Assembly (NCBI RefSeq): GCF_018977255.1
Contig: NW_024704856.1
Location: forward strand, 62,001-126,000
Direction of reading: 5' to 3'
Length of the DNA: 64,000 nucleotides
Source of the DNA: Callorhinchus milii
Lineage: Eukaryota
Position numbers and translations under genes: made by a program. The notes under the pieces are model-generated. The model worked only from the letters and a program-made list of their open reading frames with translations, made no database searches and was not told the origin of the DNA. Below, in pieces: positions 9,744 through 40,049 of the stretch (position 1 is the first letter of the stretch; each line of letters starts with the position of its first letter).

Positions 9744-9755
9744 TTTGTACCTCAG

Positions 9756-9788
9756 CACTTCCTGATTGAAACTGGTTTCGGTTTCAGT
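9756..9788 (-). promoter_or_regulatory. ISRE/IRF element plus ETS site upstream of TRIM-A ATG
   Basis: Minus strand reads actGAAACCGAAACCagtttcaatCAGGAAGTG, within 45 nt of the ATG. Confidence 0.65.
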
Positions 9789-10169
9789 GTGAGAGTGTAG
9801 GCGGATCCCAGTCACTGAGCTGCCAAACCCTCTCGTACAGTCACTTCTTGTGAAATCAGATGATTGTGACTTTGATCCCAAGAGAAGATGAGAGAGCCTT
9901 GTACAGTGACAAGGACACCCGAGCAAGGAAGGCTTTGGACTGTGGGGAAGCGTAGTGTGCATGTTGGGGTGGGGATGGGGGGGAAGTGGTGGGAGTATGA
10001 CAAAAAGCGCCATCAATTGGATTAGTTTGAGGCTCTGAGACAGACCTAATATCTCTGAGATGGTTTTCCGGAGTGCGGGGTGTACAATGGCTGAAATCTC
10101 ACACAGTGAGGCGGATATTGGGTTGATTTGGGGGTGATATGAAGTTGCAGGCGTTTTTTGAGTGAATGC

Positions 10170-10450
10170 TGTGGCCGGGTCAGTTGTGTTGAAGGAGGTG
10201 GCGGACGAATGGCCGTGTAAGGCAATGAGGGCTTTTGAAATTGAAGGCATGGTCGACGACAAAGACCTTCAGACGGGACTTGAAGGATGTGAGGCAGAGG
10301 AAACGCAGGTAGAGTTGGAGAGTGTGGGGACAGAGATGCTGAATGTCTGACCTCCAATGGTGGGGTGGGAATTGCGGGTGAACTAAAACAGGCCGGTGTC
10401 TGCCGAGTGGAGGGAGCAGACTTTCTGATATGCTTTTATGAAGTAAAAGA
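10170..10450 (-). mobile_element. Old L2 3' fragment upstream of TRIM-A (shared with TRIM-C and TRIM-D flanks)
   Basis: Similar to the L2 3' ORF end (ggaggtcagacattcagc...ccccacactc); paralogous copies at about 34530-34840 and 40430-40730. Confidence 0.6.
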
Positions 10451-10509
10451 AGTAGGGGGGAATAAGACCATGGAGGTGCCTTGAATGAAGGACAAGGCTG
10501 TTCTTTGAG

Positions 10510-12870
10510 CAACTGGGCTGGTCTCTATGTAACTGGTCTTCTCGCTGTATTAAGCCTGGTCTCTATATAACTCACCATGGGTCTGCATGACAGGCTTGAT
10601 CTCTGCATAACGGGCCTGGTCTGTTTATAACAGCTTGGATTCTGTATAGCTGCCTGGCCTCTGTATAACTGACCAGGGCTCTTTATAACAGTTCTGGTCT
10701 CTGTAGGAAATCTTTGCACAGTGTACAACTGGCTTCATGTCTGTGCAACATCACTGTTCTCTGTTAAAAAGCTCTGGTCTCTGCATAATAGACTTGGTCT
10801 CTGTAAAATTGGCCGAGTGTCTGCATACCAGGCCTGGTCTCTTTATAATAGGCGTAGCCTATGTATAACTGGCCTGATCTCTGTATAAGAACCTCGTATA
10901 TGTATATCGGCTTGGTTTTTGTAAATATGTCCTGGTCTCATATAACAGATCTGGTCTCTGTATAACCGGCCTGGCCTTAGTAAAACTGGCCTTGGCTCTG
11001 CATAACAAACCTGGTTTCTATAGAACAGCAGTGCTCTCTTTTTAACAGGCCTTGACTTTGTATCACAGCTTGAAGTCTGTGTAATAGGCCTGGTCTCTGT
11101 ATAACAGATCTGGTCTCTGTTTAATAGGCCAGGTCTCGCTATAAACTTCTGACCAAGGGTCGTGGAGCAGAAACTTTGACTCACTTTCGTTTCTCCATAG
11201 ATGCTGCCTCACCTGCTGAGTTTTCCCAGCTCTCTCTGTTTATATTTCAGATTTGAGCATCTGCAGTATTTTGTGTTTTGCTCGCTATAACTTCTTGGTC
11301 TATATACAAGAGGCCTGATCTCTACGTAACAGCCGGTTCTCTGTATAACAAGTCTTATCTCTGCAAAGCTCCCTGGTCTCTGTATGAAATGACTGATTCC
11401 TGTATAAATTGTGTAGTTTCTGTGTAACTGGCCTGGACTCTTTATAACAAGTCTGGACTCTGTACGGTCTCTGTATAACTAGACTCGTCTCTGTATAACA
11501 GCTGGTCTGTGTAGAACTGTCCGGTCCTCTGTATAGGAGGCCGAGTCTCCGTATAATTGGCCTCATATCTGTGTAAAAGCTTGGTCTCTGTATAACAGGC
11601 CTTGTTTATCAACAAAAGGCCTAGTTTCTGTATGAGGTGCCTGGTCTCTATAAAAGAGCACTGGTCGCCATATAATAGTATGTCTGCTATCTGTGTAACA
11701 TCCTGGTCCCTGTATAACAGGATTAGTCTGTACATAAAAGGCCGCGTCTCTGAATAACAGCACTGGTGTATGTACAGCAGCACTGTTCTCTGTATAACGG
11801 AACTGGTCTATCAATAATAGCCTAGTCTTTGCGTAGCATGACTGGACTATTTATGATAGGCCTGGTTTCTGTATCACAGCTGGTCTCTGCACAACAGGCT
11901 TTGAATACCTATAAAAGACCTGGTCTTTGTATTAGAGATCTCGTCTCTTTACACGAGAACTGGTCTACATATAACAGCCTAGATCCTATGCAACCAGCGT
12001 AGTCTATGTATAATATTCTTGTGCCCTCTATAACAGTCTCGTCTCTGTAAAACAATCCTTGTGAATGTATAATAGACCTGCTTTCTGTATAATAGCCTCC
12101 TCTCTGTATTATTGGCCTAATCTATGTATAATAGGTATATTCTATGTATTACAGGCCAAGTGTATGTGTAAAAGGTTTGCTGTCTGTTTAACAGCACTGG
12201 TACTTGTACAACAGGACCCGTTTCTTTGCAACAGCACTGTTCTGTGTATAATAGACCTTGTCTATCAATAGCAGCCTAGTATTTACACGACATGCTCGGT
12301 CTGTATATAAGTGACCTGGTTCCTGTGTCGCATTCCGGTCTCTGTTCAACAGTCCTGGTGTCTGCATAACAGGCTTTGACTGGGTATAAAAGGCCTAGTC
12401 TTTGTTTAAGAGGCCTAGTATCTTTGCAAGAGCACTGGTTTACATATAACAGCCGAGACCATATATAATAGCCTAGACTATGTATAATAGGCTTGCTGCA
12501 TGTAGAAAAAGGTTGTCTCTGTCAAACAGGCCTTGCATATGTCTAGCAGGGCTGCATTCTATAAAACAACCCAAGTCTCTGTCTAATCGGCCTAATCTAT
12601 GTATAAACGGTCTGTTCTATTTATAACAGTCGTGGTGTCCATACAGCTGCCTGGTCTCTGTGTAAGAGGCCTAAGATATGTACAACAGTCCTGTTCTTTG
12701 TATAACAGGGAAGATCTGTGTAAACCAACCTGGTCTCTGTATAAAAGGACTAGGTTTTGTGTAACAGGCCAGGTCACTGTATAACAGACCTGGATTCTGT
12801 GCAACAGTCCGGGTTTCTGTGTAAAATATTGCTCTCTGTATAAATAGCCCAGTCTCTGTAAAACAGAAAC
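10510..12870. repeat. Degenerate ~20-bp satellite (ggcctggtctctgtataaca)
   Basis: Recurrent ctggtctctgtataacagg motif at about 20-nt spacing over 2.3 kb. Confidence 0.85.
11151..11280 (+). mobile_element. 130-bp short retro-insertion with target-site duplication (Penelope-terminal-like)
   Basis: Flanked by ctcgctataa(a)cttct (11135-11150 and 11281-11295); body ...agatgctgcctcacctgctgagttttcccagc...gcatctgcag. Confidence 0.65.
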
Positions 12871-13039
12871 CTGGCGGCCGCAACATAGACAGAGAGAGAG
12901 AGAATGAGAGAGAGAGATAGAAAGGTTTTACAAAGTGATGACAAATTTTCAAACGCTCAGATTTTATGATTATTTGTATTTATTGTTTATCGATTTTCTA
13001 TCATCTATTATCTATTATTGATTATTATGATCTCTTATT

Positions 13040-13265
13040 CAAAATCATTAAAAAGCCTGATAATAATCCCTAAGTAAAACAATAATAAAATTATTCGTTT
13101 CAACCCACGGCTGTTTGTGTACCACAGTGATGTGCGCAATTGGCTGCCGCGTTTTCCCACAAATACACAGTCAATTCACGAAACAGTTTAATCTGACGTC
13201 GAGAAGACGTGAAACGCGCTGTATCAAAGGCAACGATTATTGTAATTATAATTATAATTATTATT
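13040..13265 (+). mobile_element. 5'-truncated SINE copy
   Basis: taataatccc...gtgcgcaattggctgccgcg...attattatt. Confidence 0.75.
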
Positions 13266-13269
13266 AAAG

Positions 13270-13620
13270 AGAGAGGACACGGCGACCACTGGTCAGTCAC
13301 AGTCTCTCTCTGTCCCTCTCTCTCTGTGCCGTCACAATCACAGCCACAGCCTGCGGCACAGACCCGGAAACTACAGCTCCCGGCATGCCTCACGGCTCAG
13401 AGCCCTCTGGTGACGGGGCCGGTCCGCGCGGGGCATCCTGGGAGCTGTAGTCAGTGTGAGAGACAGAGACACAGAGACAGACACATGTCCACACAGTCTC
13501 TGTCTCTGTGTCTCTGTGTCTGTCTCTCTCACTGACTGAGTTGGGGAATGAGGGACATGTCCTGACTCTCTGATGTTGATCTGCAGTGTTTGTGCTGGTG
13601 TCAGAGGAGGAGAGATTCAG
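13270..13620. promoter_or_regulatory. Regulatory module: ETS, inverted pair of ZNF143/THAP11-type motifs and a central CTCF-like site
   Basis: ccggaaACTACAGCTCCCGGCATGC (13370-13388); reverse copy GCATCCTGGGAGCTGTAGT (13433-13451); minus-strand TCACCAGAGGGC (13402-13413). Confidence 0.65.
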
Positions 13621-13629
13621 GGGCAGCTA

Positions 13630-15237
13630 TCTGTCAGAGAGTGTGAGTGAGTGTCAGAGAGTGTGAGTGAGTGTCAGAGAGTGTGAGTGAGTGTCAGAGA
13701 GTGTGAGTGAGTGTCAGAGAGTGTGAGTGAGTGTCAGAGAGTGTGAGTGAGTGTCAGAGAGTGTGAGTGAGTGTCAGAGAGTGTGAGTGAGTGTCAGAGA
13801 GTGTGAGTGAGTGTCAGAGAGTGTGAGTGAGTGTCAGAGAGTGTGAGTGAGTGTCAGAGAGTGTGAGTGAGTGTCAGAGAGTGTGAGTGAGTGTCAGAGA
13901 GTGTGAGTGAGTGTCAGAGAGTGTGAGTGAGTGTCAGAGAGTGTGAGTGAGTGTCGGAGAGTGTGAGTGAGCGTCAGAGAGTGTGAGTGAGTGTCGGAGA
14001 GTGTGAGTGAGTGTCGGAGAGTGTGAGTGAGTGTCAGAGAGTGTGAGTGAGTGTCAGAGAGTGTGAGTGAGTGTCGGAGAGTGTGAGTGAGTGTCAGAGA
14101 GTGTGAGTGAGTGTCGGAGAGTGTGAGTGAGTGTCAGAGAGTGTGAGTGAGTGTCAGAGAGTGTGAGTGAGTGTCAGAGAGTGTGAGTGAGTGTCAGAGA
14201 GTGTGAGTGAGTGTCAGAGAGTGTGAGTGAGTGTCAGAGAGTGTGAGTGAGTGTCAGAGAGTGTGAGTGAGTGTCAGAGAGTGTGAGTGAGTGTCAGAGA
14301 GTGTGAGTGAGTGTCAGAGAGTGTGAGTGAGTGTCAGAGAGTGTGAGTGAGTGTTGGAGAGTGAGAGTGGGAGCTGTAGTCAGAGTGAGAGACAGAGAGT
14401 GTGACAGTGTTTGTGGGTGTCAGAGAGTGTGAGTGAGTGTCAGAGAGTGTGAGTGAGTGTCAGAGAGTGTGAGTGAGTGTCGGAGAGTGTGAGTGAGTGT
14501 CGGAGAGTGTGAGTGAGTGTCGCAGAGTGTGAGTGAGTGTCGGAGAGTGTGAGTGAGTGTCGGAGAGTGTGAGTGAGTGTCAGAGAGTGTGAGTGAGTGT
14601 CAGAGAGTGTGAGTGAGTGTCGGAGAGTGTGAGTGAGTGTCGGAGAGTGTGAGTGAGTGTCAGAGAGTGTGAGTGAGTGTCAGAGAGTGTGAGTGAGTGT
14701 CGGAGAGTGTGAGTGAGTGTCGGAGAGTGTGAGTGAGTGTCGGAGAGTGTGAGTGAGTGTCGGAGAGTGTGAGTGAGTGTCAGAGAGTGTGAGTGAGTGT
14801 CGGAGAGTGAGTGAGTGTCAGAGAGTGTGAGTGAGTGTCGGAGAGTGTGAGTGAGTGTCGGAGAGTGTGAGTGAGTGTCGGAGAGTGTGAGTGAGTGTCA
14901 GAGAGTGTGAGTGAGTGTCGGAGAGTGTGAGTGAGTGTCAGAGAGTGTGAGTGAGTGTCAGAGAGTGTGAGTGAGTGTCAGAGAGTGTGAGTGAGTGTCA
15001 GAGAGTGTGAGTGAGTGTCAGAGAGTGTGAGTGAGCGTCAGAGAGTGTGAGTGAGTGTCGGAGAGTGTGAGTGAGTGTCGGAGAGTGTGAGTGAGTGTCA
15101 GAGAGTGTGAGTGAGTGTCAGAGAGTGTGAGTGAGTGTCAGAGAGTGTGAGTGAGTGTCAGAGAGTGTGAGTGAGTGTCGGAGAGTGTGAGTGAGTGTCG
15201 GAGAGTGTGAGTGAGTGTCAGAGAGTGTGAGTGAGTG
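13630..15237. repeat. 20-bp tandem repeat (GAGTGTGAGTGAGTGTCAGA)n, roughly 75-80 copies
   Basis: Near-perfect 20-nt period with an A/G variant; one interruption at about 14355-14420. Confidence 0.97.
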
Positions 15238-15239
15238 AT

Positions 15240-15990
15240 CAAAGAGAATCAGCATTGATTGGTGAACAGTGCGAAAAAAGAAAGTGCATCGAATTGGAGG
15301 TAAATCGCGGAGATGTGCGGAGCCATCCGTTACGGATCCCAAAAATAGCCGATCACATCATTTACTGAGCGGTGAAAAATTTAGCACTGCGGGAGGACAA
15401 ATGTGTTTGGGTGTCCACGTCCACACGTTGTTAAATATAAGCTCTAATTTGCAACAGAAGGTCAAAAATACAAACTGGTTGTTGTTGGTCTTTATCTCAA
15501 CGATAGAGGAGAGGAATTGATGCTTCAAACATACAGAAACTTGGTCATGTTCTATCTGGAGTAATGCGTTCAGTTTTGGGTATCGCACCTCATGAAGGAT
15601 ATATTGAGATTGGATGTGATATATCGAAGAATAATCAGAATGATAACAGGACTCAAATGGATAAATTATATAGGAAGATTGCAAAAGCTTCTACTCAAAT
15701 CCTTTCTGCTTCCAAGGTTGAGAGGCGCTCTGGTTGAGGATTTTAAATCGATAACTTGATTCATTAGTGTATGTACCGATAACCTTTTCCTCTGGTTGGG
15801 AAATCCAAAATAGGGAGACACGAAATTAAGATGCAAAGGTCGGCCATTTACGAGTGACATTTAGTGACCGCATTTGATCCAAAGTGCAGTTGCAACCTGG
15901 AACTTTCTCCCTTAAATGCTCAATCCATTGACATGTTGAATGCTCAGTTGGGTCGATATACTTTAGTTCGGGGCATTAAGGGTCACTGCG
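15240..15990 (+). mobile_element. CR1-like LINE 3' relic
   Basis: gtgtccacgtccac..., gtaatgcgttcagttttggg, gttgcaacctggaac resemble the CR1 ORF2 C-terminus and 3' UTR; no intact ORF. Confidence 0.5.
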
Positions 15991-17949: not shown

Positions 17950-18002
17950 ACTGTGAGTGAGAAACGGGGATCAATGTGAAGCGCTGACCTCACCTCGTAT
18001 CA
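17950..18002 (+). pseudogene. Small relic of a TRIM SPRY exon
   Basis: Encodes VRNGDQCEALTSPR versus [14 protein letters not shown] in TRIM-A; same position as the larger relic at 44390-44772. Confidence 0.6.
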
Positions 18003-19340: not shown

Positions 19341-22051
19341 TTATTTAAATATGTGTTTAAATGGATAGGTCACCAGAAATTTGACATCCTCTCTGAACTT
19401 AGATTGTGTTAAAGCATAAATGACGGTGTTTGTGCAGCAACTCAAAACCTTAAGAATGTCTATCACTTCTTGGACAACAAACGCTGGGTCTCTGTAACTT
19501 GTGTAGACAAAACTGTCTACAGTTCGTACAATTATGAATCCTATAACATACATCATCCATAACAGGATGAAGCTGCCTGATATGGCGAAGAGTAAAATGA
19601 TGGATTTTCGTCGATTCTCCATCTCTGCATCATTGCGACTTTCGCTGTTCTGGTGCAGGAGGTTCCTGCGGATTCTGTTGGCCGCTAAGATGTGTCTCAC
19701 TGTCACCACGTTCATCAGCAAAATCAGAAAGAATGGAACAAACGGTGATATGATTGTGTAAAACCAGTGAAACCCAATCCATGCTTGAGAGGTGCGGTAA
19801 GCTGCTTTCAACTTGCAATTCCAAGGCACTTTGTTCACTACCACCCACGGCTCAACTATGAAGTACCAGGGAACTGCGATAAAACAGCTCAGGGAAGAAA
19901 TCACTCCTACAACCACGGCTGCTGTTCTCTCGGTGCAATAACTTCTTTTCAGTTTCACACAACAGATGGCGACCAGGCGATCAAAGGTGAAAGCCACTGT
20001 GAACCAGACTGACATGTTTGTCGCCGCCGAAATCAACACCAGTCTGAGTGAACACACGGGAGTGATGTCCAGAAAAGTGTGCGGGAAATAAAGAGAATGG
20101 ATTTCGTTCAAAACCACTTCGTTGACGGCGAACAGGAGATCGGCCACTGCCATTGCCACCAGGTAGAGGGTGATACATTTTGAGAGACCGCACTTTCCCC
20201 GGGACAGGACCACAATGGCCAACAGGTTCCCTGTGAGATAAATGAACAGCAAACAAACATATTTAACTGTTAGCTGCGTAATTTGAAGGTATTGTGCTCG
20301 AACTGCATTCACAGAGCTGTTCTCTACCAATGCTCATGGATTGAATTGATCATTCGTTTTCAAAAATATTTGGAATGCATTACTAAGAGAGATTGAAGGG
20401 TTCAAACATAGTTATCTCGCTTGTTAGGCGACTGCGCCAACCACTGAGCTACAGATATGATTTAACCAATGAACTACAGACAAAGAAAAACCGAGTAACA
20501 TATAAGATGTTCAAACTCATTCTCTGCCTTTCGTCTATTCATTTGGACACTAATGATCTCCTGTGACATTACCATAAAACAGAATGAAGTTTCTCCACGT
20601 CCCCTGGATAAGCATCCACGAAATAAAGTTAGTAGATTGCAATATTCATCATTCTTCTATGTTCAGAATTATGTCAACATTTGGTAGGATCTGGTGAAGT
20701 AAATCCTTTGAATATAACCTGAAATTTTTGGATCAAAATTAACATAAATGTGCGTTCCTTTCATACGAGAACATAAATTGGAAATCCGCCTACACTTGTT
20801 CAAGACGAAGATAACATTTCCACTATTATTGCTAAAAATATACATTACGAAAGCATAATTCACAATAAAATCAAAATATGTAAAGGGCACACACGCATTA
20901 AAATTTCGCATCTAAACGCAAATAAACTTGATCACATGTATCTGTTCTACTTGGTTATTTTATTTTGGGAAAGAAAGCTTCCAGCATTTCTTGCATTGAT
21001 TAAAATGAAGTTACAAAATAATTGAAAACAATTCAATCATTCTATTGATGATCAGATACCGATGATTCCGTGGTTCTCCAATGCTTTTCTCCGTGGACTG
21101 CCCAGCTATTCTGTTCACAACATTCATCTCATTCAAAGCACCAACATATCCTCACTCCTATAATCTCCGCAGTTCCATCAATCTAGTACTTGCCAGGCTT
21201 CCCTGCCTCCTTCCTAGAAAACACAATAATAATAATCCTTGCATTTGATATAGCGCTTTTCACGTCGGGAGGACGTCCCAAAGCGCTTCACAGAACACAC
21301 TGTAAAGTGAATTGACTGTATATTTGTGGGCGAAGGCGCACAGCAATGTCCCACAAACAGTCGTGGATTGAAAATGACCAATTTATTATTGTTTTTGGTT
21401 TTGGAGGGATTATTATTAGGCTCTGTGTGGAGTAAGGACACTTGCCCAAGGTTTGGCCCTTGATACAAGGGTATCAAGATTGTCAAAACATCTGCAAACC
21501 GTTCCTACCCTGGAATCTCTCTGGCTCTCAACCTACTGACAGAACTGGCCCGTCCAGCCGCTGACTCGCTCATATGCTCACACATCCCCCACCGTCAGAC
21601 ATTCTTACAGCCAATATGTCCTGAAACACTGGACGCTCAATGTCTTCACATCACACCATTTTGAGCGATCATCAGATCAGACCGGAAGATATTTCGCTTG
21701 GATTGTGTCTATGGTCACCTAAGTTACACGCGAGGTAGCGAGCAGGCCATCAAACATAAGGGTCACACTATCAGTCTCACAGCGAGAGCAGAGAGGGTTG
21801 AGCCAACCACAGAATGATATCCTTCTGGAGACATCAAAAAAGACATCAGCGGAATAGGAGGCACAGCTGGGCAAGGAAACGTAGATGAGTGTGCCATAAA
21901 AANGCTTGTGGTACATAGGGATACAAGTAAAATGCTGCTGTAACTTATTACCTGTAATACCAATAGCTGCAAGAATAGGATAATAAACTATCAGTATCCG
22001 ATAAATTGTTGGCAAATACTGCCACGGAAAGTAGGCTACAGCCCTCAACAT
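19341..22051 (-). CDS. GPCR1: GPR139-like class A 7TM receptor, 329 aa
   Basis: Exon 1 22051-21952 (100 nt, MLRAVAYFPW...AAIGIT), exon 2 20230-19341 (890 nt), phase-1 GT-AG intron, 990 nt in frame; GNLL (TM1), MAVADL (TM2), FTFDRLVAIC (DRY variant), ENRRKS, CCTNTVIY (NPxxY variant). Confidence 0.9.
21224..21455 (-). mobile_element. SINE copy in the GPCR1 intron
   Basis: Reverse complement of the SINE body and tail. Confidence 0.85.
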
Positions 22052-22104
22052 TGTCTATCAGCAGCGGATAGACTTTCAGTCCTGGACATTCAAAGCTGCC
22101 AGTC

Positions 22105-25164: not shown

Positions 25165-25194
25165 NNNNNNNNNNNNNNNNNNNNNNNNNNNNNN
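25165..25194. other. Assembly gap (30 N)
   Basis: Run of n. Confidence 1.
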
Positions 25195-25232
25195 GTGTTT
25201 CTGGAGTCGTTTTTGATTTACCAAGACACGGT

Positions 25233-28200
25233 TTAATCAAATGGTACGTACCACGGGCACAGTAGGGTGAAAGTGTGGAGATGACACATGTTATCAGCGT
25301 TGTAAAATGTCACTTGTTCCCCCTCATAGTCCAGGTAAACTCCCAGCTTCCCGGGTCTCTCTCTCAGATGCAGGCGGGTGGGAGGTGAGGTCAGAGCTTC
25401 ATATTCATTCCCATTTCGCAGCTTCACAGCCCAGAATCCGTTCTCTGGTGTCGCTATGATCTGTCCTTTCCTGTTGACAGACTCTCTGGCCAGTCCCACA
25501 TCCCACTTTGTCTTGTTGGTCACCTGCACCTCCCAGTAATGTCTCCCGGATGTGAACCCCTCAGATCCCAGGACATAGAAGCAGTAATCAAACCTCTTCG
25601 GGGAGTCCGGGAGCTGCTGCCATGTGTCTCCAGTTCTCACGCTGGTCAGGTCCTCTGACAGTATGAGGTAGGGATTCGCTGTGTCAGGGTCCAGAGTCAG
25701 AGAGGCCGGAGCTGAGAGAGAGAAACAACACAAAGTGGAGTGAGGGGACGTCTGAGCGCTCAGACTGTGTGTGAACACTTCTAAAGCTGGGGACACAATC
25801 CAGCTCAGAGGGTCACAGTCGGTGTGACTGTATGTGTGAGTGTGTGTGTGAGGGTTTGTGTGAGGATGTGCGTTGGGGAGGGTGTGTGAGCGGTTGTATG
25901 AAGGTGTATGTGAGAGGCTGTGTGATGGGATGTGTGAGTTTCCGCGTGAGGGTTTGTGTGAGTGGATGTGTGTGCGAATAATTGTGAGGGTGTGTGTGAG
26001 TGGATGTGTAAGGGTGAGCGTGTCAGCGGGGTGTTTGAGGCTGTTTGTGAGGGTGTGTGTTTGAGGTTGTGAGTGTGTGCGACGGTGTGTGTGAGGATGT
26101 GTGAGGTTGTTTGTGAGGGTGTGTGTGATCGCGTATGTGGGAATGTGTGTGTGATTGTTGTGTGTGAGGATATGTGTGAGTGTATGTGTGAGATTGTGTC
26201 ATGATCTGTGTGAGGGGATGTGTGAGGGGATATGTGAGGACGTGTGTGTGTGTTTGTGTGTGGATGTGTGAGGGGTGTGTGTGTAAGAATGTATGTGAGT
26301 GTGTGCGAGTGTGTGTGCAAAGGGGATTTTGAGGGTTTTTGAGGGGTGTATGTGAGCGGTTTGCGTGAGGGTCTGTTTGAGGTTTTGCGAGGTTGCGTGT
26401 GGGCGTGTGAGAGTGGTTTGTGACGGACTGTGTGGGGATGTGTGTGAGGGGGTGTGTGTGAATGGTTATGTGAATGTGTGTGGGAGGGTTTTTGTGATGG
26501 TTTGTGTGAGGAGGTTCGTGAGGAGTTATGTGCGAGTGAGTGTTTGAGGTGGTGTGAGAGGGATTGTATGAGCGTGTGTGTCAAGCTACGTGTGAGGATG
26601 TGGGTGAGGTGTGTCTGTGTGTGGGTGTTTGAGGCGTGCGTGTGAGGGTGTGTGTGGGGGGGTGTGAGGGTGCGTGTGAGGGGTACACACCTCTGAGGGT
26701 GTGTGAGAGTGAATGTATGTGTCAAGTTGTGTGTGAGGGGCTGTGATAGTGGATGTGTGAAGGTTTGTGTGAGGGTGTGTGTGAGTGTGTGTGTGGGGTG
26801 TGTTTGAGAGGATTGTGTATGTGTTTGAGGGAACGAGAGAGGGGTTATGTGAGAATGTGTGATGGTACGTTTGAGGATGCGTGTGAGGGGTGCATGTGTG
26901 GGTATATTTGAGTGGTGTGCGTGAGGGTGTGTGGGAGGATGTGTGTGATGGAGTACGTGACGTTTGTGTGTGATGGGTGTGTTTGAGGGATGTGTGAGGT
27001 TTGTGAGGTTGCATGTGAGTGGTGTGTGTAAGGGTTTGTGTGAGTGGTTGTGAGAGGTGTAGTGTGCTGATGTGTGTGAGGGTGTGTTTGACGATGCGTG
27101 TGAGTTGTTGGGTGTGAGGGTGTGTGTGAGGGTTTGTGTGTGAGCGGGTGGTGCCTGAGTGTGAGAGTTTTGTAAGGGTTTTTGTTTGAGGGGATAGGTG
27201 AGTGTTTGGGTGAGCGTGCATGTGAGGGTCTGTACGAGGGTCTGTGTGAGGGGGGAAGGGTTGTGAGAGGTGTGAGTGTGTGTGTGGGGGTGTGTGTGTA
27301 TGACAGGGTAATAATATTAATAATAATAATAATAATAATCCTTGCATTTCATATGGTGCTTTTCAGTGTTTTTCGACGTCTCAAAGCGCTTCACAGAATA
27401 TAATATGAAGTGAATTGACCGAACATTTGTGGTCAAAACGCGCCAGCGAATTGCGCACAGCAGCGACCCACAAACAGCCGTGGATTTAAAATGACCAATT
27501 TAGTATTGTTTTTCTTTTTTGGAGGGATTCTTATCAGTTGTGTGGAGTAAGGAAACTTGCCCAAGGATTCACGCTGCCTGAGATTGAACCCATGTGTCTC
27601 GCTTGCAAGGCGAGTGCTCTAAACACTGAGCTTCAGGACTCCACATACAGGATGTGTGTATGAGGGGGTGTGAGATGTTGTGTTTGAGGGTGTGTGTGAA
27701 CGTGGGCGTGAGGGAGTGTGGGAGCGTGTATGTGAGGGTCTTTATGACGGTCTGTTTGAGGCTGTGTGTGAGGGGCTGTGTGAGTGGTTGTGTGAGGTTA
27801 ATTATTTTGTGTGCGTGTGTGCGTGACTGTGTGTGTGTGAAGGTGTGCGCGAGGCTGTGCGTGAGAGGGTGTGAATGTGTGAGTGACGTGTGTTTCAGGG
27901 TTAAGTCTGTAATAGACGTATGTGAGATGTGTGTGTGTATGAGGTGTGTTTGTGGGTGAGGCGTGTGTGAGGGGATGTTTGTAAGAGGTGTGAGAGAGAG
28001 CTGTGTAACGTAAGCAGCGCGTATGTGAGAGTTGTGTGTTTGAGGGGTGTGTGTCAGGTGTGGTTAAAGAGTTTATGTTTGGTTTGTGTGAGATGTGTGT
28101 GAGCGTTCTGTGCGAGTTTTGTGCGTTACTAGTATTCTGAGGTTTGTGTGTCAGATATGAGTGTGTTGTGTATTCTTTCAGGTGTGTGTAAGAGGTGAGT

Positions 28201-30351
28201 GTGTGAGGCATGAACACGTGTGTCTACGATAGGTGTTGATGAGGTGTCTGTGAGGTGTGTGAGTGGTGTGTGTGAGGGCTGTGTTTGAGGAGTGCTGTGA
28301 GGGGTGTATGTTTCAGATGTGTGTGAGGTGTGAGAGAGAGTTGTGTGTGAGAGTTGTGTGTGTGTGTGTGATGTGTGTGTGCAAAGCGTGTGTGTGTGAG
28401 TTGTGTGTGTGTGTGTGGGAGGGTGTTGCGATTATGTGCATATGTGAGTGAGGAGTCGGTATGTGTATGTGTGAGGGAGTGTGTGGAGGGTATGTGTTGG
28501 GATTCAGGTGAATACAAGTCTATTGACACGGATTCAGGGTGAGAATGGGAGACATGTACCTGGGCTGATGTTGTCTATAATCTGTCTCCAGACTGTGTTC
28601 TTCAAAGGCCATTTGTACTTGGCCACAGGCAGCTCATCCTCACACACTGACAGATCAAAACCCTCGTCACTGACCCTGAAATAAGACACGATCACAGTAT
28701 AAAGTGAAACTGCACCTTGTGGTTGGTTTATGGGTTGAATTGTGGGATATTTGCTAAAGATCATTTCATACCTTCTGTTGGCAGCAGCTTCCTCCTAATG
28801 AAATCAAACACAGACAGATGTCAGTTCATATCGAGACACCAACACAGACAAGTTAAATGTGCGCAGAGTATCTCACGTCCCAATACAATCTCTGATCTCT
28901 TTATCAAACACAATTAGTTTGTCTGCTCCCGACTGTGTATAACCGTTACTGAACTATAAAATAATGTCATGTCTTTACCTGCATGAAGGTGAGATCGTCT
29001 TTTCCCAGCTGTGCCGTTAACTCGGAGAGTTGTTGTTCAACAGAATCTAATTTGCACTGAATCTCTCGCAGATTTGTCTCCATTCGCTTTAGAATCTCCT
29101 CCTCTCGCTGTCTGAGATCTCGCATCACTCGCTGCTCTCTGTCAGTCAGACTCTGGTGCATTTTAGCAAACTCACCCGTGACGTGGATCTGCAGACTGTT
29201 CACCTGTTCCTGCAAATGTCACACATTCAAACATTACACACAGTAACAAGAGAACCTGAGACATCACACCGTGTACACACAGTAACCAGAGACCCTGAGA
29301 CACCACACTCTGTACACACAGTAACCAGAGATACTGAGACATCACATCGTGTACACACAGTAATCATAGACACTGAGATATCACACCGTTCACACACAGT
29401 AACCAGAGACACTGAGATATCACATCGTTTACACACAGTAACCAGAGATACTGAGACATCACACCGTTTACACACAGTAACCAGAGACACTGAAACATCA
29501 CACCGTCCACACACAGTAACCAGAGACACTGAGACATCACACTGTGTACACACAGTAACCAGAGAACCTGAGATATCACACCGTGTACACCAAGTAACCA
29601 GAGACACTGAAACATCACACCGTCCACACACAGTAACCACAGACACTGAGACATCACACTGAGTACAAACAGTAACCAGAGACACTGAGACATCACACCG
29701 TGAACACACAGTAAACGAAGAAACATTGATTGCCCAGACATCAGCCCCAACACAACTTACCTTAACTTGTGAAATCTTTTCTTTCTGTTTGGCTGCAGAT
29801 TGTAGAGCCGTTTCCTTCCTCTGTGTCAGAGAAGCTAAGGAGGACTTTGTTTGATCCTGGAATAAACGCACAGAATAAAAGTGCTTGATGTGAAAACCAG
29901 ACGCGGAAACAAAATAAATCCCTCGTGAGCGCATCATTACCTTGTAGATTTCAGCAGCTTCGTCAATGGGCAGGAAGCTGTGACCTCTGTGTTCTTTCGC
30001 ATCTCTGCAAATGTAACAGATCAATTTCTTGTCAGTTTCACAGAACAGCTTCAGTTGCTCCCGGTGTTTCTCACACTGAAGGTTAACTGCCGTCTGTGTC
30101 GGGTTCAGGCACAATTTTCGAGCTTTCTCTGCTAGACTCGCCAAGGCCCAACTGGCTGTGAGGTTCTTTTCTGGAAATGTCTCCTGACAAACAGCACAGC
30201 AGTTGTTCTCCTGCTTTTCCCAGCTCCGGGTGACGCAGGAGCGACAGAAGTTGTGGCCACAGCCCAGACTAACAGGATCAGTGAAGAAATCCAGACAAAC
30301 CGGGCAAATGATCTCCTCGGTCCAGATCTCACGCTGGAGTCCAGAAGCCAT
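25233..30351 (-). CDS. TRIM-B: RING-B-box2-CC-B30.2 TRIM, 451 aa, SPRY C-terminus replaced by foreign sequence
   Basis: Exons 30351-29941 (411), 29856-29761 (96), 29209-28979 (231), 28794-28772 (23), 28675-28560 (116), 25711-25233 (479); GT-AG and in frame; homology to TRIM-A stops after HLHTFT at about 25266. Confidence 0.85.
25820..28500. repeat. GT-rich low-complexity tract (TRIM-B intron 5) containing a minus-strand SINE at 27310-27645
   Basis: Degenerate (GT)n; reverse-complement SINE. Confidence 0.85.
29235..29715. repeat. 39-bp minisatellite, TRIM-B intron 2 (about 12 copies)
   Basis: Same unit as 8950-9135; 13-aa periodic translations. Confidence 0.92.
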
Positions 30352-30499
30352 TTTGATCCTCAGCACTTCCTGATTGAAACTGGATTAGGTTTCAGTGTGA
30401 CTGTGTTGGCGGCTCCCAATCACTAGGCTGACAAAGCCACCCCTCAAGTCTCTTCTTGTGAAACCAGTTGGTTTTGACTGTGATCCCAAAAGACCAAAT

Positions 30500-30850
30500 C
30501 TACATTCTCAACCGTCCGATTGTCAGTGAAGCAAACGGCCCCAGTTTGAGCTGTTGCTGTGTGTTGATGGTATATTTAGGTTTGATTTCCATTTAGTTTT
30601 TCCCCTTTGCTCTCGTGCTGTGACTGTCAGCAGCAGAGAGGAACAAGACGCTGTGAGTTCAGCTCTGCATATGCCCTGTGGTTAGTTACCCAGCGCCTGG
30701 TTTCCTGTCGTTCTGTACAAACAGTGAATCAGATGCAGAACAAGAAGCCGAGGCTTTAGTTATTCACTCAAAACCCTCTGACTTCTCATTCAGGCCAACT
30801 ATGGAACTGAGGGAGCAGTGGCTACACTGTGAGCTCTGCCGGTCCCGTGC
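30500..30850. repeat. ~350-bp unique module, copy 1 (others at about 31610-31950 direct and 43050-43395 inverted)
   Basis: tctacattctcaa..gtccgattgtcagtgaa...ctgtgactgtcagcagcag...gcgcctggtttcctgtc...ggccaactatg shared. Confidence 0.8.
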
Positions 30851-32479
30851 TTTGTGTGTGTTTGTGTGTGTGGAGTGACCAGTGTGTGTGTGTGTTTGTT
30901 TGTGCTCGACCTGTCAAGGGCTGTGCGTATGTGTGTGTGTATGTGTGTGTGTATATGCCCTGCCTGTCCCGGGGTGCTTATGTGCGTGGGTGTGTTGTGG
31001 TTGTGTGTGTGCTCTGTCTGTCCCAGAATGTCTGTGCTGGTCTGTGTATGCGCTCTGCCTGTCCCGTCTGTGTGTGCGTATGTATTTGTGTGATCTGTCA
31101 GGCTGTGTTTGTGTGTGCGGCTCTGTGTGTGGTGTGTGTGCTGCATGTCCCAGGCTGTGTGCGAGCCGACACAGCACTTGTGTGGAGGGGCAGGAGGGGA
31201 AGTGTGTGGGTAGTTCATCACCTTGCGGCACATTCAACTGCGATGAATCCCATCTTCCCGTTCCCCAACCTGCAGGATAATACACCTTGCATTTGACATA
31301 GAGACTTTCAAGTCAGGAGGACGTCACAAGTCATGTCGCAGTATATACTTTAAAGAGAAGTAACTGTGTACTTTGTGAGTGAAGGTGACAACATAGTATT
31401 GCAACATTAACTTCCCACGGAGTGAACGTCTGAAGTTATTCTGGGTTTGTTGTATCGATACCTGGGACAGACATTGTGAGGGGCTGTTTCTTCGTTAATA
31501 AAGACATAAACTGCAGGTCTGGGCTGTGTGGGTGACCGCAAATTTGGGAACACAAGTGAACTCAACACAACATGGTTTCACAGTTCAAACTGACAGGATT
31601 GTCATCGAGTCTACATTCTCAATCGTCCGATTGTCAGTGAAACAAGCGGTTAGATTTTGAGCTGCTGCTATGTGTTGATGGTATATTTATGTTTGATTTC
31701 CATGTAGCTTTGCCCTTTGCTCTCTTGCTGTGACTGTCAGCAGCAGAGAGAAACAAGACGCTGTGGGTTCAGCTCTGAACATCCCCTGTGGTTAGTTACC
31801 CAAGCGCCTGGTTTCCTGTCTTTCTGAACAAACAGCGAGACAGATGCAGAACAAGAAGCCGAGGCTTTAGTTGTTGACTGAAATCCATCTGTCCTCTCAC
31901 CGAGGCTAACTATGGTGCAGTGAGGGCAGTGGCCACTCTGTGTGCACTGCCTGTGCCGGGTTGTGTGTGTGTGTGTGTAGGGAGGCAGTGTGTGTGTGTA
32001 TGGAGTGCAGTGTGAGTGTGCATATTTGTAAGGAGGGCAGTGTGTGTGTAGGGAGGGCAGTGTGTGTGTGGAGGAAGGGCAGTGTGTTTGTGTTTGTGTG
32101 TGTGTGTAGGGAGTGCAGGTGTCTGTCTGTGTGTGTTTGGAGGGAGGGCAGTGTGTGCGTAGAGGAAGGGCATTGTGTTTGTGTTTGTGTGTGTATAGGG
32201 AGTGCAGGTGTGTGTGTGTGTGTGTGGAGGGAGGGCAGTGATCACACTCTGTGCGCTGCCTGCCAGATTGAGAAACATTTCCAACTTCAGCCCTCACACC
32301 CTAAACCACAACAGGCACCGCATCGCCCCCAACCATATGTGTCTGACACACACACACACACACCCACACACACACACACACAATCCCGTCACCGTGATCA
32401 CCCGGGTGTCTGAAATACTCAGCAACCCATTACATAGAGAGACCAAGCGTTTTACTAACAGACAAAACCTATTATAAAA

Positions 32480-34520
32480 GTTTGATACACATAGAACCGC
32501 CTGTGATACACAGACCAGGCATGTTATGTACAGATAAGGCCTATTGTAGAGAGACCAGGCATGTTACCCAGAGACCAGGCATTGTATACATAGACCAGAT
32601 TCTTATCGAGAGACCAGACAGTTATACAAAGACCAGGCTTGTTTTACAGAAACAAGGCAGTTATAAAGAGAGCAGCTTGTTAGAGCGAGTTCATAGTTTT
32701 TTTAAAGAGGCCAGTGCTGTTCCACAGGTATCAGGCCAGTATTGCATGACCAGGCAAGTCATGGAGACACCTGGCATTTTACACAGAAACAGTGGGTTTT
32801 ACATAGTCCAGGCCTGTAACAAATAGACCAGACTGTTTTAAAGAGACAAGGTTATTACACAGAGTCCAAGCTGTCGTTCAGATTAGAGGTCTCCTATTCA
32901 GAGACAAGCCTGATGTACAGAGACCTGGCCTGTTGTACAGATACCAGAGCTTTCATATACAGAACAGACTTGTTATAAAGAGCCCAGGCCAGTTAAACAG
33001 AGACCAGACCTGTTATATAGAGACCAGGTCTGTTATAGAGAGACCAGGCCTGTTATGCAGTGACCATGCTACTATGCAGAGACAAGGCTGTTATACAGAA
33101 ACTAGAACTGTATAACTCGACCTCTGTTATAGAGACACCAGGCTATAATATAGAGAACTTGCATTTTGTACACAGACAAGACCTATTATACATAGACAAA
33201 CCTGTCACACTATTTCCAGGGCTGTTAAACCGAGAACAGGCTTTTGCACAGATATCAGGCCACTTATACGGAGATAATACAGAGGCCAGGCCAGTTATAC
33301 ACAGACCAGCTTTTATGTAGGCATAGGCTAGTTATAGAGAGAACATACAGAGTCTAGACCAGTTATGCAGAGCCCAGGCCAGTTATACAGAGAGCAACCC
33401 TGTTATAAAGAGACGAGGGCTATTATACCAAGACTATGCAAGTTCTACAGGAATCTGGCCTCTAATACAGAGACAAGGCCATCCAAACAAATACCAGGGA
33501 GTTTTACAGATATAAGGCTTGCTAAACAGAGATCAGGCTGTTACACATAGACCTGGACATTTATGCAGAGAACATTGCAATAGTACAGAGACAAGGCTTG
33601 TTTCACCGATACCAGGCCTGTTGTACATAGACTAGGTCTGTCTTACAGAGACAAGGACTGTTATTCAGAAACCACGCTACTTTACAAAGACCAGGCTTGT
33701 CATACAGAGACCAGTGCTGTTCTATAGAAACCAGATCAGTTATACAGAGCCCAGGCCAGCTTCAAATAGGCCATGACCATTACGCAGATAACTAGCCTAT
33801 TATACAAGACCAAGCCAATATACATATACTAGCCTTTTATGCTGAGATCAGGACAGTTACAACAACAACAACAAAACAACAACAAGATTCCATTTATTGA
33901 GCGCCTTTCACGTCGGGAGGATGTCCCAAGGCGCTCTACAGTTGGGTCAGGACGCGAGCAAGGGGGAAATGGTCAGGGTGAGGGGAGGAAGATTGGGAGC
34001 GAGGAGAGGGTAGAGAGTCGAGAGGGGAGCTGAAGGCACGGTCAAAGAGAAAGGTCTTGAGACCGGCCTTGAAGGAGGAAAGGGAGTAGGCAAAGCGAAG
34101 GCACTGGGGGATAGAGTTCCAGAGCCACATAGATGGTGACTATTATAAAGTCAGGCCTGTTATGCAGAGACCAGGCTTGTTTCACAGAGATTATGGCTAT
34201 TATACAGAGAACAGAGCTTTTATGCAGAGACCAGAGCTGCTGTACAGACATCAGGTCTATTACACACTGTGCAGATATTTTGTACAGAGACCATACATGC
34301 TGTAAAGAGCCGATGGCAGTTAGACAGAGAACAGGCTGTTATACACTGACAAGGACTGTTATACAGGGACCAGACCTGTTATAAACAGATCCGCCCCGTC
34401 ATGCAGAGCTGAAACCTGTTATGCAGACACTTGGCGTTTTTTATATAGACCAGGCGTCAATGCAGAGCTCAGCGAAATTATATGGAGTACAGCCCTGTTA
34501 CACAGAGATCAGGCGTGTTG
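32480..34520. repeat. Degenerate ~20-bp satellite upstream of TRIM-C
   Basis: tgttatacagagaccaggcc motif, the reverse complement of the 10510-12870 unit. Confidence 0.85.
33860..34126 (-). mobile_element. Young L2 LINE 3' end inserted in the satellite
   Basis: Reverse complement of about 48870-49130 with a (CAA)n tail; absent at the paralogous site near 41145. Confidence 0.85.
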
Positions 34521-35202
34521 TTCCTTCAAGTCACCTCCACGATCTTGTTCCACTCTACTTCACCAACTTCATAACCGCATATCAGACTGTCTGTTCCCTC
34601 CGCTCGGCAGACACCGGCCTGCTTCAAGTCACCCGTAATTCCCACCCCACCGTTGGAGGTCGGACATTCAGCATCTCTGTCCCCACACTCTGGAACTCTA
34701 TACCCGCATTCCCTCTGCCTCATCTCCTTCAAGTCCCGTTTGAAGGTCTTTGTCGTCCACCGTGCCTTCAATTTCAAAAGCCCTCATTGCTTTACAAGGC
34801 ACTTCCTCCGCCACCTCCTTCAACCCAACTAACCCGGCCACACCATTCACTCTTCACATCAACCCCCACCCATCCCAATATCTGCCTCACCGTGCGAGAT
34901 TTCAGCCATTGCACATGTCGCGCACCAGAAAACCATCTCAGAGATACGAGATCTTTCAAACAACCTCAAATTAACACATTTGATGGCGCTATTTTATCAT
35001 CCTCCCAACCCTCCCCGCCCCAACCATCATGCACACCACCCCTCCTCATAGTCCAACGCCTTCCTTGCTCGGGTGTCCTTGTCATTGTACAAGGTTTTCT
35101 CATCTTCTCTTGGGATCAAAGTCACAATCCATGATTTCACAAGAGACTGTAGGAGCGGGTTTTGTCAGCTCAGTGAATGGGAGCCGCCTACACACTCAGA
35201 CC

Positions 35203-35232
35203 GAAACTGAAACCAGTTTATGTCAGGAAGTG
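35203..35232 (+). promoter_or_regulatory. ISRE plus ETS upstream of TRIM-C
   Basis: GAAACTGAAACCagtttatgtCAGGAAGTG. Confidence 0.6.
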
Positions 35233-35244
35233 CTGAGGATCAAA

Positions 35245-37180
35245 ATGGCTTCCAGTCTCCCGGCTGAGATCTGGACCGAGGAGATCATTTGCCCGATTTG
35301 TCTGGATTTCTTCACGGATCCTGTTAGCCTGGGGTGTGGCCACAACTTCTGTCGCTCCTGTGTCACCCGGAGCTGGGAAAAGCAGGAGGAAAACTACTGT
35401 ACTGTTTGTCAGGAGATCTTTCCAGAAAAGAACCTGAGAGCCAGTTGGGCCTTGGCGAGTCTAGCAGAGAAAGCACGAAATTTGATCCTGACCCCGACAC
35501 AGACGGAAAATAAACTTCACTGTGAGAAACACCGGGAGGAACTGAAGCTGTTCTGTGAATCTGACAATAAATTTCTGTGTGTAGTTTGCAGTCATGAGCA
35601 GGAACACAGAGGCCACAGCTTCCTACCCATTGAAGAAGCTGTTGAAATTTTTAAGGTAAGAATACTCCTCAAGAAGGATGATACCTGATCCAACTGATAT
35701 TTTCACCTTCAAACAGGTTAATTCTGTGTATTTATTCCAGGATAAACTGATATCCTCCTTAGCTTCTCTCACACAGAGGAAGGAAACTAGTTTACAAGCA
35801 GAAGCCAAACAGAAAGAAAAGATTTCACAACTGAAGGTGAGATTTCACAAAATATATCTCAGTGTCTCAATTTACTGTGTGTACACGTTGTGATGTCTCA
35901 GTGTTTCCAATTACTGTGTGTACACATTGTGACGACTCAGTGTCTATGGTTACTGTTTGTACATAACGTCATGTCTCAGAGTCTCTGGTTACTGTGTGTA
36001 CACAATGTGATGTCTCAGTGTCCCTGGTTACTGTGTGTACACGGTGTGATGTCTCAGTGTCTCTGGTTGCTGTGTGTACACGGTGTGATGTCTCAGTGTC
36101 TCTGGTTACTGTGTACACGGTGTATGTCTCAGCTCTGGTTACTGTGTGGACACGGTGTGATGTCTCAGTGTCTCTGGTTACTGTGTGTACACGGTGTGAT
36201 GTCTCAGTGTCTCTGGTTACTGTGTGTAACGGTGTGATATCTCAGTGTCTCTGGTTACTGTGTGTGCACGGTGTGATGTCTCAGTGTCTCTGGTCACTGT
36301 GTGTACACGGTGTGATGTCTCAGTGTCTCTGGTTACTGTGTGTACACGGTGTGATGTCTCGGTATCTCTGGTCAATGTGTGTATACGGTGTGATATCTCA
36401 GTGTCTCTGGTTAATGTGTGTGCACGGTGTGATGTCTCGGTGTCTCTGGTCAATGTGTGTACACGGTGTGATGTCTCAGGGTCTCTGGTTACTGTGTGTA
36501 ATGTATGTTTGAATGTGTGACATTTGCAGGAACAGGTGAACAGTCTGCAGAACCACGTCACGGGTGAGTTTGCTAAATTGCACCAGAGTCTGACTGACAG
36601 AGAGCAGCGAGTGATGCGAGATCTCAGACAACGAGAGGAGGAGATTTTAAAGCGAATGGAGGCAAATCTGAGAGATTCAGTGCAAATTAAATTCTGTTGA
36701 ACAACAACTCTCCGAGTTACAGACACAGATGGGAAAAGACGCTCCCACCTTCCTGCAGGTAAAGAGATGACAATATAATGACGCTCAGTCACAGTTACAC
36801 AAAATTCTGGAGCAAACAATCTAATTGTGATTGATAAAGAGTTTAGAGATTGAATTGGGACTTGAGAGACGCAGTCCACATGTAACTTTTTGTTGTCGGT
36901 GTTGACTCAGTGCGAGCGAAGATCTGTCTTGTTTGATTACATTAGGAGGAAGCTGCTGGCAACAGAAGGTATGAAATGATCTTTACCAAATATCCCAGAA
37001 TTGAACCGACAAACCAACCACAAGGTGCAGTTTCACTATATAATGTGATCGTGTCATATTTCAGGGTCAGTGACGAGGGATTTGATCTGTCAGTGTGTGA
37101 GGCTGAGCTGCCTGTGGCCAAGTACAAATGGCCTTTGAAGAACACAGTCTGGAGACAGATTATAGACAACATCAGCCCAG
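35245..37180 (+). pseudogene. TRIM-C: frameshifted TRIM (would give a 225-aa RING-B-box-partial CC protein); SPRY exon not seen (gap)
   Basis: Exons 35245-35655 (411), 35741-35836 (96), 36530-36758 (229, 2-nt deletion aatctg--agagatt, TGA at 36698-36700), 36946-36968 (23), 37065-37180 (116). Confidence 0.8.
35875..36500. repeat. 39-bp minisatellite, TRIM-C intron 2 (about 16 copies)
   Basis: gtacacggtgtgatgtctcagtgtctctggttactgtgt unit. Confidence 0.92.
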
Positions 37181-37239
37181 GTACATATCTCCCATTCTCA
37201 CCTTGAAGTCGTGTCAATAGATTTGCATTCATCTCGATC

Positions 37240-39308: not shown

Positions 39309-39338
39309 NNNNNNNNNNNNNNNNNNNNNNNNNNNNNN
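39309..39338. other. Assembly gap (30 N)
   Basis: Run of n. Confidence 1.
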
Positions 39339-39416
39339 CAGAAGCTTTGTGAAGTGTGAGTAGGGTTTGGAAGCACGAGCTGCGTTGCTGTGTGGTCATT
39401 TCTCATCTGATCTCAC

Positions 39417-40007
39417 CTTCAGTTGTGAAATCTTTTCTTTCTGTTTGGCTTCTGCTTGTAAACAGTTTCCTTCCTCTGTGTGAGAGAAGCTAAGGAGGAT
39501 ATCAGTTTATCCTGGAATAAATACACAGAATTAACCTGTTTGAAGGTGAAAATATCAGTTGGATCAGGTATCATCCTTCTTGAGGAGTATTCCTACCTTA
39601 TAGATTTCAACAGCTTCTTCAATGGGTAGGAAGCTGTGGCCTCTGTGTTCCTGCTCATGACTGCAAACTACACACAGAAATTTATTGTCAGATTCACAGA
39701 ACAGCTTCAGTTCCTCCCGGTGTTTCTCACAGTGAAGTTTATTTTCCGTCTGTGTCGGGGTCAGGATCAAATTTCGTGCTTTCTCTGCTAGACTCGCCAA
39801 GGCCCAACTGGCTCTCAGGTTCTTTTCTGGAAAGATCTCCTGACAAACAGTACAGTAGTTTTCCTCCTGCTTTTCCCAGCTCCGGGTGACACAGGAGCGA
39901 CAAAAGTTGTGGCCACACCCCAGGCTAACAGGATCCGTGAAGAAATCCAGACCAATCGGGCAAATGATCTCCTCGGTCCAGATCTCAGCCTGGAGACCGG
40001 AAGCCAT
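39417..40007 (-). pseudogene. TRIM-D: 5' fragment pseudogene
   Basis: Exon 1 40007-39597 (411) with RING CPIG instead of CPIC; exon 2 39511-39417 is 95 nt (1-nt deletion); homology ends 7 nt into intron 2. Confidence 0.82.
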
Positions 40008-40019
40008 TTTGATCCTCAG

Positions 40020-40049
40020 CACTTCCTGACATAAACTGGTTTCGGTTTC
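40020..40049 (-). promoter_or_regulatory. ISRE plus ETS upstream of TRIM-D
   Basis: Minus strand GAAACCGAAACCagtttatgtCAGGAAGTG. Confidence 0.6.

Follow-up and report, generated by a model that had tools for sequence, protein, structure and literature searches.

A candidate IRF and ETS promoter element before the start codons of clustered TRIM genes in the elephant shark

What would a short GAAA repeat, standing at the same place before several duplicated genes, do there? The question is raised by a stretch of 64,000 nucleotides of the elephant shark Callorhinchus milii (assembly GCF_018977255.1, contig NW_024704856.1, positions 62,001 to 126,000; the window), in which four TRIM genes of the RING-B-box-coiled-coil-PRY/SPRY type (TRIM-A to TRIM-D) carry a GAAA-containing 12-mer and an ETS-type site just ahead of the ATG. 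An earlier note, made from the letters alone, had described this pair as an ISRE (interferon-stimulated response element) with an ETS site. We consider it likely, although well short of certain, that an IRF dimer site and an ETS site together form a TATA-less proximal promoter, which would make these TRIMs IRF-dependent and probably inducible by virus or interferon (IFN), and that this cassette was inherited with exon 1.

The 12-mer reads GAAACCGAAACC in TRIM-A (9774-9785(-)) and TRIM-D (40038-40049(-)) and GAAACTGAAACC in TRIM-C (35203-35214(+)), being intact in the three genes, and its counterpart in TRIM-B (30382-30393(-)) is GAAACCTAATCC. The ETS-type 9-mer CAGGAAGTG was detected in all of them, at 9756-9764(-) in A, 30364-30372(-) in B, 35224-35232(+) in C and 40020-40028(-) in D. 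A gap of 9 nt separates the 12-mer from the 9-mer in 4/4 copies, and another of 12 nt separates the 9-mer from the ATG (at 9743, 30351, 35245 and 40007 in A to D, respectively), in such a way that the IRF site occupies positions -42 to -31 and the ETS 9-mer -21 to -13 in the four genes. The motif coordinates of the earlier note were exact, as was its 9-nt gap, but the ATG, which it had placed directly next to the ETS site, lies 12 nt further on. It was also right that TRIM-B lacks the second GAAA half-site and keeps the ETS site: a G>T change at -36 and an A>T change at -33 destroy the former, and the latter is left intact.

In the window GAAANNGAAAC has 3 matches and CAGGAAGTG has 4, every one at these TRIM starts, against shuffled-window expectations of 0.63 and 1.00, with the observed count reached in 1 of 100 shuffles each. 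This comparison was discarded as a test of motif count because the copies are paralogues: their identity over the 50 nt next to the ATG is 82-96%, so that the four represent one inherited origin and their number proves nothing. Taken as a single origin, the 11-mer would fall by chance into any particular 50 nt with a probability of around 5e-4, for a pattern picked post hoc. The motifs lie in a proximal block of about 140 nt common to the four paralogues (9744-9883(-) in the coordinates of A); the upstream homology of TRIM-B to TRIM-A ends at around -140, and no TATA match was found in the 170 nt upstream of the copies.

The class of the site was studied by comparison with known consensus sequences. 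The IRF element (IRF-E) consensus G(A)AAA(G/C)(T/C)GAAA(G/C)(T/C), as given in PMC2654144, is matched at 12/12 positions without mismatch in A, C and D, and TRIM-B fails it; the ISRE core GAAANNGAAA, as defined in PMC6954429, is likewise present in A, C and D and absent from B. By its letters, the 12-mer can safely be taken for an IRF dimer site, which TRIM-B has probably lost. To the strict ISRE/ISGF3 consensus (A/G)NGAAANNGAAACT, the same three copies show 2 mismatches, at the 5' purine and the 3' T. In the account of PMC6954429, the detailed ISGF3 form WBVGGAAANNGAAACT is rare even among IRF9-bound regions (<1%), and sites with a 3' ACT are over-represented where IRF9 dominates, with no variant being exclusive. 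Control by type I IFN through ISGF3 does not appear to be specifically indicated by the 12-mer, because the strict ISRE is missed at 2 positions while the IRF-E fits 12/12; binding of ISGF3 would still be compatible with it. The name of IRF/ISGF3 element given to it earlier is thus supported in its first half and is not specific in its second. The ETS core consensus (A/C)GGAAGTG is present in 4/4 copies, with 13 nt between the second GAAA and the GGAA, and no exact match to the ETS-IRF composite element (EICE) or the IRF-ETS composite sequence (IECS) was found in the 170 nt of any copy.

These two composites likewise join an IRF half-site to a GGAA core on the same strand, and the order found here, IRF and then ETS, is that of the IECS, but their spacer of 2-3 nt compares with 13 nt in the TRIM genes, which sets the TRIM element outside them. 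The ISRE or ETS-IRF response element (EIRE) of ISG15, GGAAANNGAAA, also combines the GAAANNGAAAC core with an ETS motif at an immune-gene promoter; the TRIM element differs from it in having T or C before the first half-site and C instead of T as the 3' base. Moreover, the ETS site of ISG15 is inside the ISRE (10.1101/851543; EIRE defined in PMC6954429), whereas that of the TRIM genes is separate. The best functional analogue of an ISRE-like site with a separate ETS site is the OAS1 promoter, for which PMC4672336 describes a separate ELF-1 GGAA element that aids ISRE-driven IFN induction, and several start sites; its GGAA motif occurs as a duplicate some 300 bp away from the start, whereas that of the TRIMs is single and adjacent.

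Other matches were seen within the 140-nt block. A third half-site, an inverted GAAAC, comes right after the 12-mer in A (9767-9773(-)) and B (30375-30381(-)) and is missing from C and D, so that B retains two isolated half-sites facing each other. At about -111 (9845-9855(-) in A) there is a TTC-N4-GAA motif of the STAT6 type, to which A and B conform exactly and from which C and D differ by one base; of a C/EBP-type site overlapping it, A, C and D have the exact form and B a form with one deviating base, and the four copies each depart at 1 position from a GC/kB-like box at -66. Judged by these letters, the STAT6-type, C/EBP-type and GC/kB-like matches are possible further elements of the block.

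Conservation outside the elephant shark was followed at the peptide level. Since the module shares the frame of the ATG, it can be followed as peptide, not as DNA, in predicted proteins whose reading continues through the flank. Relatives were searched with TRIM-A exon 1 alone, a query that is blind to the flank, and the 167 RING starts used consist of the proteins from this search plus one from a second search seeded with a shark flank; the latter gave 2 hits and is motif-biased, and its new row (P0121) was left out of the counts of 46 and 32 below. At least 15 residues precede the methionine in 57 of the 167 starts, corresponding to 47 from sharks or rays (46 without P0121), 3 from C. milii and 7 from other organisms. 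Glutamate-valine (EV) at codons -6/-5, the in-frame read of the ETS site, was found in 32/46 shark and ray flanks, and the flank pattern in 0/7 of the non-chondrichthyan rows of the exon-1 search. Among the 32 EV-bearing elasmobranch flanks, which are related to one another and include one evident splice artefact, E occupies position -14 in 17 cases and position -12 in 22, the two half-sites are compatible (E-14 and E-12, then residues allowing an A-initial codon) in 15 flanks from 10 species, and E[ST]E[ST] fits 10, always in the register of the in-frame read of TRIM-A. Further upstream, matches to TRIM-A drop to 0-6 of 30-32 at each position from -15 to -30 codons, which argues that the conserved block begins at the first GAAA. 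Replacements at the two E positions (in rows that are not independent) are Q or K 15 times and never D, as expected of a run of A kept at the DNA level and not of protein constraint. A search with flank plus RING among 1.84 billion representatives returned the pattern in 3/64 flank-bearing rows, two from C. milii and one from Heptranchias; a tuatara row with E-T-E-S was set aside as chance, being in another register and without EV. At the peptide level, the IRF plus ETS layout is apparently common to the elephant shark, sharks and rays, and the holocephalan-elasmobranch split is dated to around 420 million years (Myr) ago (PMC3964593).

The transcript was studied on TRIM-A, whose six exons are coding exon 1 (9333-9743(-), 411 nt, RING and B-box, with the ATG at 9743), exon 2 (9152-9247(-), 96 nt), exon 3 (8692-8922(-), 231 nt, coiled-coil region), exon 4 (7777-7799(-), 23 nt), exon 5 (7568-7683(-), 116 nt) and exon 6 (3542-4086(-), PRY/SPRY). 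The product has 473 amino acids, 473/473 identical to the C. milii 'zinc-binding protein A33-like' XP_042201770.1 (P0123). Four sequencing runs (X1, X2, X3 and X9) were aligned to 7450-10540 at 88% likeness, with paralogues included; X1-X3 were judged from their joints to contain spliced RNA, and X9 is DNA-like. Joints at introns 1, 3 and 4 in X1-X3, and at intron 2 in X2 and X3, confirm the predicted splicing, with none in X9, and the letters of a loose contig end at 7568 correspond to the beginning of exon 6. In X2 and X3, which come from two studies, no depth is left at or above 9738, where X9 goes on, and this weakly hints at a 5' end close to the ATG. In X1, a paralogue contig runs unspliced across 9693-9876, with 69 and 114 letters on either side of the candidate acceptor at 9761 discussed below. 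The X1 depth of 136 in the bin 9738-9841 includes one run-through contig of depth 14.8, and the rest, which ends before 9823, could fit a start or an acceptor alike. X1-X3 are also without cover at 9946-10153, where X9 has cover, and this was not used as evidence. The letters of the TRIM-B variant do not occur among the 40 of 283 differences listed for these runs. Contigs cannot show a start, and these weakly favour one near the element over an acceptor.

From the sequence, gene structure, splicing and peptide-level register observed, we infer factor binding, a start site and inducibility. An IRF dimer (of the IRF1/2/8 type, or IRF3/7/9 after virus or interferon) would bind the 12-mer, and an ETS factor would support initiation nearby, with transcription starting within about 140 nt of the ATG and without a 5' intron, in such a way that the gene would become IRF-dependent and probably virus- or IFN-inducible. 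Each duplicate would receive the module together with exon 1, and under birth-and-death evolution the module would decay or vary in many copies, TRIM-B being one of them. What this retains of the interferon-stimulated TRIMs proposed before is an IRF plus ETS element in a probable proximal promoter, with its register kept in sharks and rays, and not the specificity for type I IFN and ISGF3.

Several points weigh against this promoter. The C. milii genome evolves slowly (PMC3964593). The peptide evidence comes from predicted models, in which E could stand for GAG and S for TCN, and it cannot see flanks that have stops or frameshifts, which inflates the apparent conservation; the variant of TRIM-B itself makes a stop. 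Spacer and Kozak positions are kept too (L-9 in 26/32 and V-2 in 28/32 flanks), so that the constraint is not limited to the two motifs. Regarding the RNA, X1 also contains intronic contigs, and X3 fades toward the 5' end anyway; the absence of a joint or loose end at 9761 refers to the joints and loose ends listed (15 of 32 and 24 of 418, respectively), which makes this argument weak, and the pyrimidine fraction does not separate the candidate acceptor (0.50-0.62) from real acceptors (0.50-0.81).

A more ambitious proposal is that the fixed cassette, with 9 nt from the IRF dimer site to the ETS site and 12 nt from there to the ATG, would have been kept for around 420 Myr in holocephalans, sharks and rays as a portable core promoter, a cooperative IRF-ETS composite with a spacing outside EICE, IECS and EIRE. 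New TRIM duplicates would each receive it along with exon 1, and the recurrent loss of a half-site, of which the B subfamily would be a case, would toggle individual paralogues from inducible to constitutive. We regard it as speculative and unlikely.

TRIM-B (25233-30351(-)) has six exons as well, at 29941-30351, 29761-29856, 28979-29209, 28772-28794, 28560-28675 and 25233-25711 (all (-)), and codes for 451 amino acids, with a SPRY profile match of 1-94 of 121 compared with 1-116 for A. Its SPRY is broken off at around 25266 by unrelated sequence, 71 nt before a gap of N at 25165-25194. These 71 nt (25195-25265(-)) have no second copy in the window and may be either an insertion edge or an assembly error. 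TRIM-C, with exons 1-5 at 35245-37180(+), has a 229-nt exon 3 (36530-36758) and hence a frameshift, with a stop after residue 225, and no PRY/SPRY exon was found ahead of the gap at 39309-39338. TRIM-D, of which exons 1-2 (39417-40007(-)) are followed by an assembly gap, has Gly at the second RING cysteine and a frameshifting exon 2 of 95 nt. A complete RING, B-box and PRY/SPRY in one frame, the C-IV TRIM arrangement, is found in TRIM-A only, since B is truncated and C and D are frameshifted; in this assignment the coiled coil was taken by region, and the integrity of A to D is that of this assembly, in which the 3' break of B and the frameshifts of C and D could be real lesions or assembly errors. 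TRIM-C and TRIM-D as alleles of one gene were ruled out, their upstream likeness being only 82-91%.

Of the 1064 relatives of TRIM-A exon 1, the best 120 come almost exclusively from cartilaginous fish, with many C. milii paralogues among them; the closest solved domains are the PRY/SPRY of pyrin and TRIM21, and 'zinc-binding protein A33-like', 'NF7-like' and 'TRIM39/69-like' are database names only. In the named models P0035, P0055, P0057, P0122 and P0124 the 5' exons are 100% those of A or B and the PRY/SPRY exons are different: P0035 is identical to TRIM-A in exons 1-2 only, and XP_042201772.1 (P0057), an intact model of 473 amino acids, equals TRIM-B over exons 1-3. The exon 1-2 peptide of TRIM-B is matched at 100% in two named models, P0057 and P0055. 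Within exon 1, A and B are 97% identical in the first 240 nt and 85% in the last 171 nt. On present sequences, such mosaic paralogues suggest that the substrate-binding domain has undergone exon shuffling or gene conversion.

In its full version, the first interpretation of this locus would make the 12-mer a type-I-IFN/ISGF3 ISRE and TRIM-B a functional gene in which loss of the half-site was selected, leaving it ETS-driven and IFN-independent. We give it a small chance. The two changes specific to B within -49 to -1 both strike the second GAAA (P 0.056 for the 12-mer and 0.024 for the 8 core bases, the window being chosen post hoc), but over the 140-nt block, where 2/12 of the B-specific changes fall in the 12-mer, P is 0.27. 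The B-type 5' end in P0057, which is intact, and in P0055 argues for a subfamily and not a lone dead copy, and B is also without the distal flank beyond about -140; against this, the B SPRY is truncated in this assembly, and TRIM-C and TRIM-D, both broken, retain the 12-mer. Moreover, 17/32 elasmobranch flanks likewise depart from the double half-site, the strict ISRE has 2 mismatches even in A, C and D, and TRIM-B stands head to head with TRIM-C (4.9 kb between the ATGs), whose intact site is 4.8 kb away from B. The element is thus broken only in TRIM-B as far as this window goes, and not when the elasmobranch relatives are considered; a divergence of TRIM-B in regulation, as claimed in the earlier note, is not supported as a special event, with B, C and D all damaged in this assembly, C and D keeping the site, 17/32 elasmobranch flanks altered and the two changes not clearly exceeding the background divergence of B (P between 0.06 and 0.27). 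The loss in TRIM-B may be decay, drift or retuning alike.

Two further observations concern these flanks and introns. Past about -140 the TRIM-B flank (30495-30950) is replaced by a copy of 31610-31999, also found inverted at 42937-43398. Intron 2 houses a 39-bp minisatellite, with 4.8 copies in A (8950-9136), 12.3 in B (29235-29714) and 16.7 in C (35857-36500).

An acceptor reading for tcag/gaagtg at 9761 (the slash marks the junction) would make it the 3' splice site of coding exon 1 behind a non-coding exon, with the GAAA repeat as intronic sequence, either inert or an enhancer. Many mammalian C-IV TRIMs have a non-coding first exon, CAG/G matches the acceptor consensus, the X1 depth in 9738-9841 could stem from contigs ending at 9761, and one shark model (P0011) joins a foreign exon straight to the EV register. 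However, the stretch 9738-9761 would be internal to any such spliced mRNA, and X2 and X3 have zero depth over it; the X1 paralogue contig bridges the site, and the joints and loose ends listed hold none at 9761. At the candidate acceptor, T makes up 3-5 of 16 nt and an AG occurs within 25 nt upstream, unlike the real acceptors, 15/15 of which have 7-10 T in 16 nt and no such AG, and conservation begins at the first GAAA and not at a pyrimidine tract. The acceptor is disfavoured, and we hold it to be improbable.

That the motif is inert, and common only because duplication or gene conversion copied the start of exon 1 with its flank, would agree with the mosaic structure of the paralogues (97% versus 85% between A and B within exon 1, and mixed PRY/SPRY exons) and with the low contrast between the motif, where A, C and D agree at 11/12 columns, and its surroundings (96/120). 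Conversion within a lineage cannot, however, hold the register across holocephalans, sharks and rays, nor make the likeness stop at the 5' edge of the motif, and we find this very improbable. Weakest of all, with hardly any probability left to it, is the conservation of the stretch as protein, as an in-frame N-terminal extension E-T-E-x-x-x-N-Q-E-V-L from an upstream start: upstream, the reading frame stays open in A, C and D, and the extension is part of several named models, but B has an in-frame stop and E>D exchanges are absent against 15 E>Q/K. Most models begin at the MAS methionine, 110 of the 167 RING starts being preceded by fewer than 15 residues or lacking a methionine at that offset, and the extensions, which differ beyond -15, occur mostly in fused multi-gene predictions.

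Other features surround the TRIM genes. Two rhodopsin-family seven-transmembrane (7TM) genes (Pfam 7tm_1) lie among them at 19341-22054(-) and 47341-~50760(-), with a third, partial paralogous 7TM block at about 61100-64000(+); they resemble the GPR139-like expansion of cartilaginous fish. A homogeneous 20-bp tandem array (80.5 copies, 95% matches) occupies 13632-15246, and a block of around 750 nt is duplicated at 12889-13628 and 54506-55235 with 81% identity, without Pfam match in the two open reading frames (ORFs) scanned. Fragments resembling the 3' end of long interspersed nuclear elements (LINEs) were recognized by eye at 33865-34126, 45034-45492, 48246-49131 and 55500-56700, without Pfam match; some copies are 91-96% identical to each other, and one interrupts the intron of the second 7TM gene. 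The Pfam scan of six other ORFs of the window detected no families.

The probable promoter that we favour, with an IRF and an ETS site close to the start of an expanded set of C-IV TRIMs, is of an ordinary, known kind among immune genes. Human C-IV TRIMs that are IFN-stimulated genes (ISGs), such as TRIM5, 21, 22, 69 and others, share the RING-Bbox-CC-B30.2 architecture and are described in PMC2654144 as IFN-induced, with promoter ISRE/IRF-E sites near the gene start. By comparison, the shark family has its site no more than 31-42 nt away from the ATG and apparently no 5' intron, and tandem duplicates receive the site as a fixed cassette. The teleost btr (TRIM39-like) and finTRIM (ftr) genes are lineage-specific tandem C-IV expansions with many IFN- or virus-induced members, ISGs being included in those of zebrafish, and paralogue-specific ISRE differences are reported for salmonid ISGs (10.1101/693333; PMC13030082). 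The family studied here is chondrichthyan by its best matches and was compared with btr and ftr by description.

IRF sites on C-IV TRIM promoters are to be expected from mammals and bony fish and cause little surprise; the spacing kept across sharks, rays and chimaeras is the part that was not found in print. In the full-text literature searched, with most subscription journals outside its scope, nothing was found about this element, nor about how chondrichthyan A33-like TRIMs are regulated. Descriptions of interferon-regulated effectors are scarce for cartilaginous fish, which branched off earliest among the lineages that have type I IFN; C. milii has loci of it (PMC6640115). With its conserved IRF plus ETS module, this TRIM expansion would be a candidate family of ISGs in the manner of the teleost btr and finTRIM genes, and the element may serve as a ready reporter that comes with a natural half-site-loss variant.

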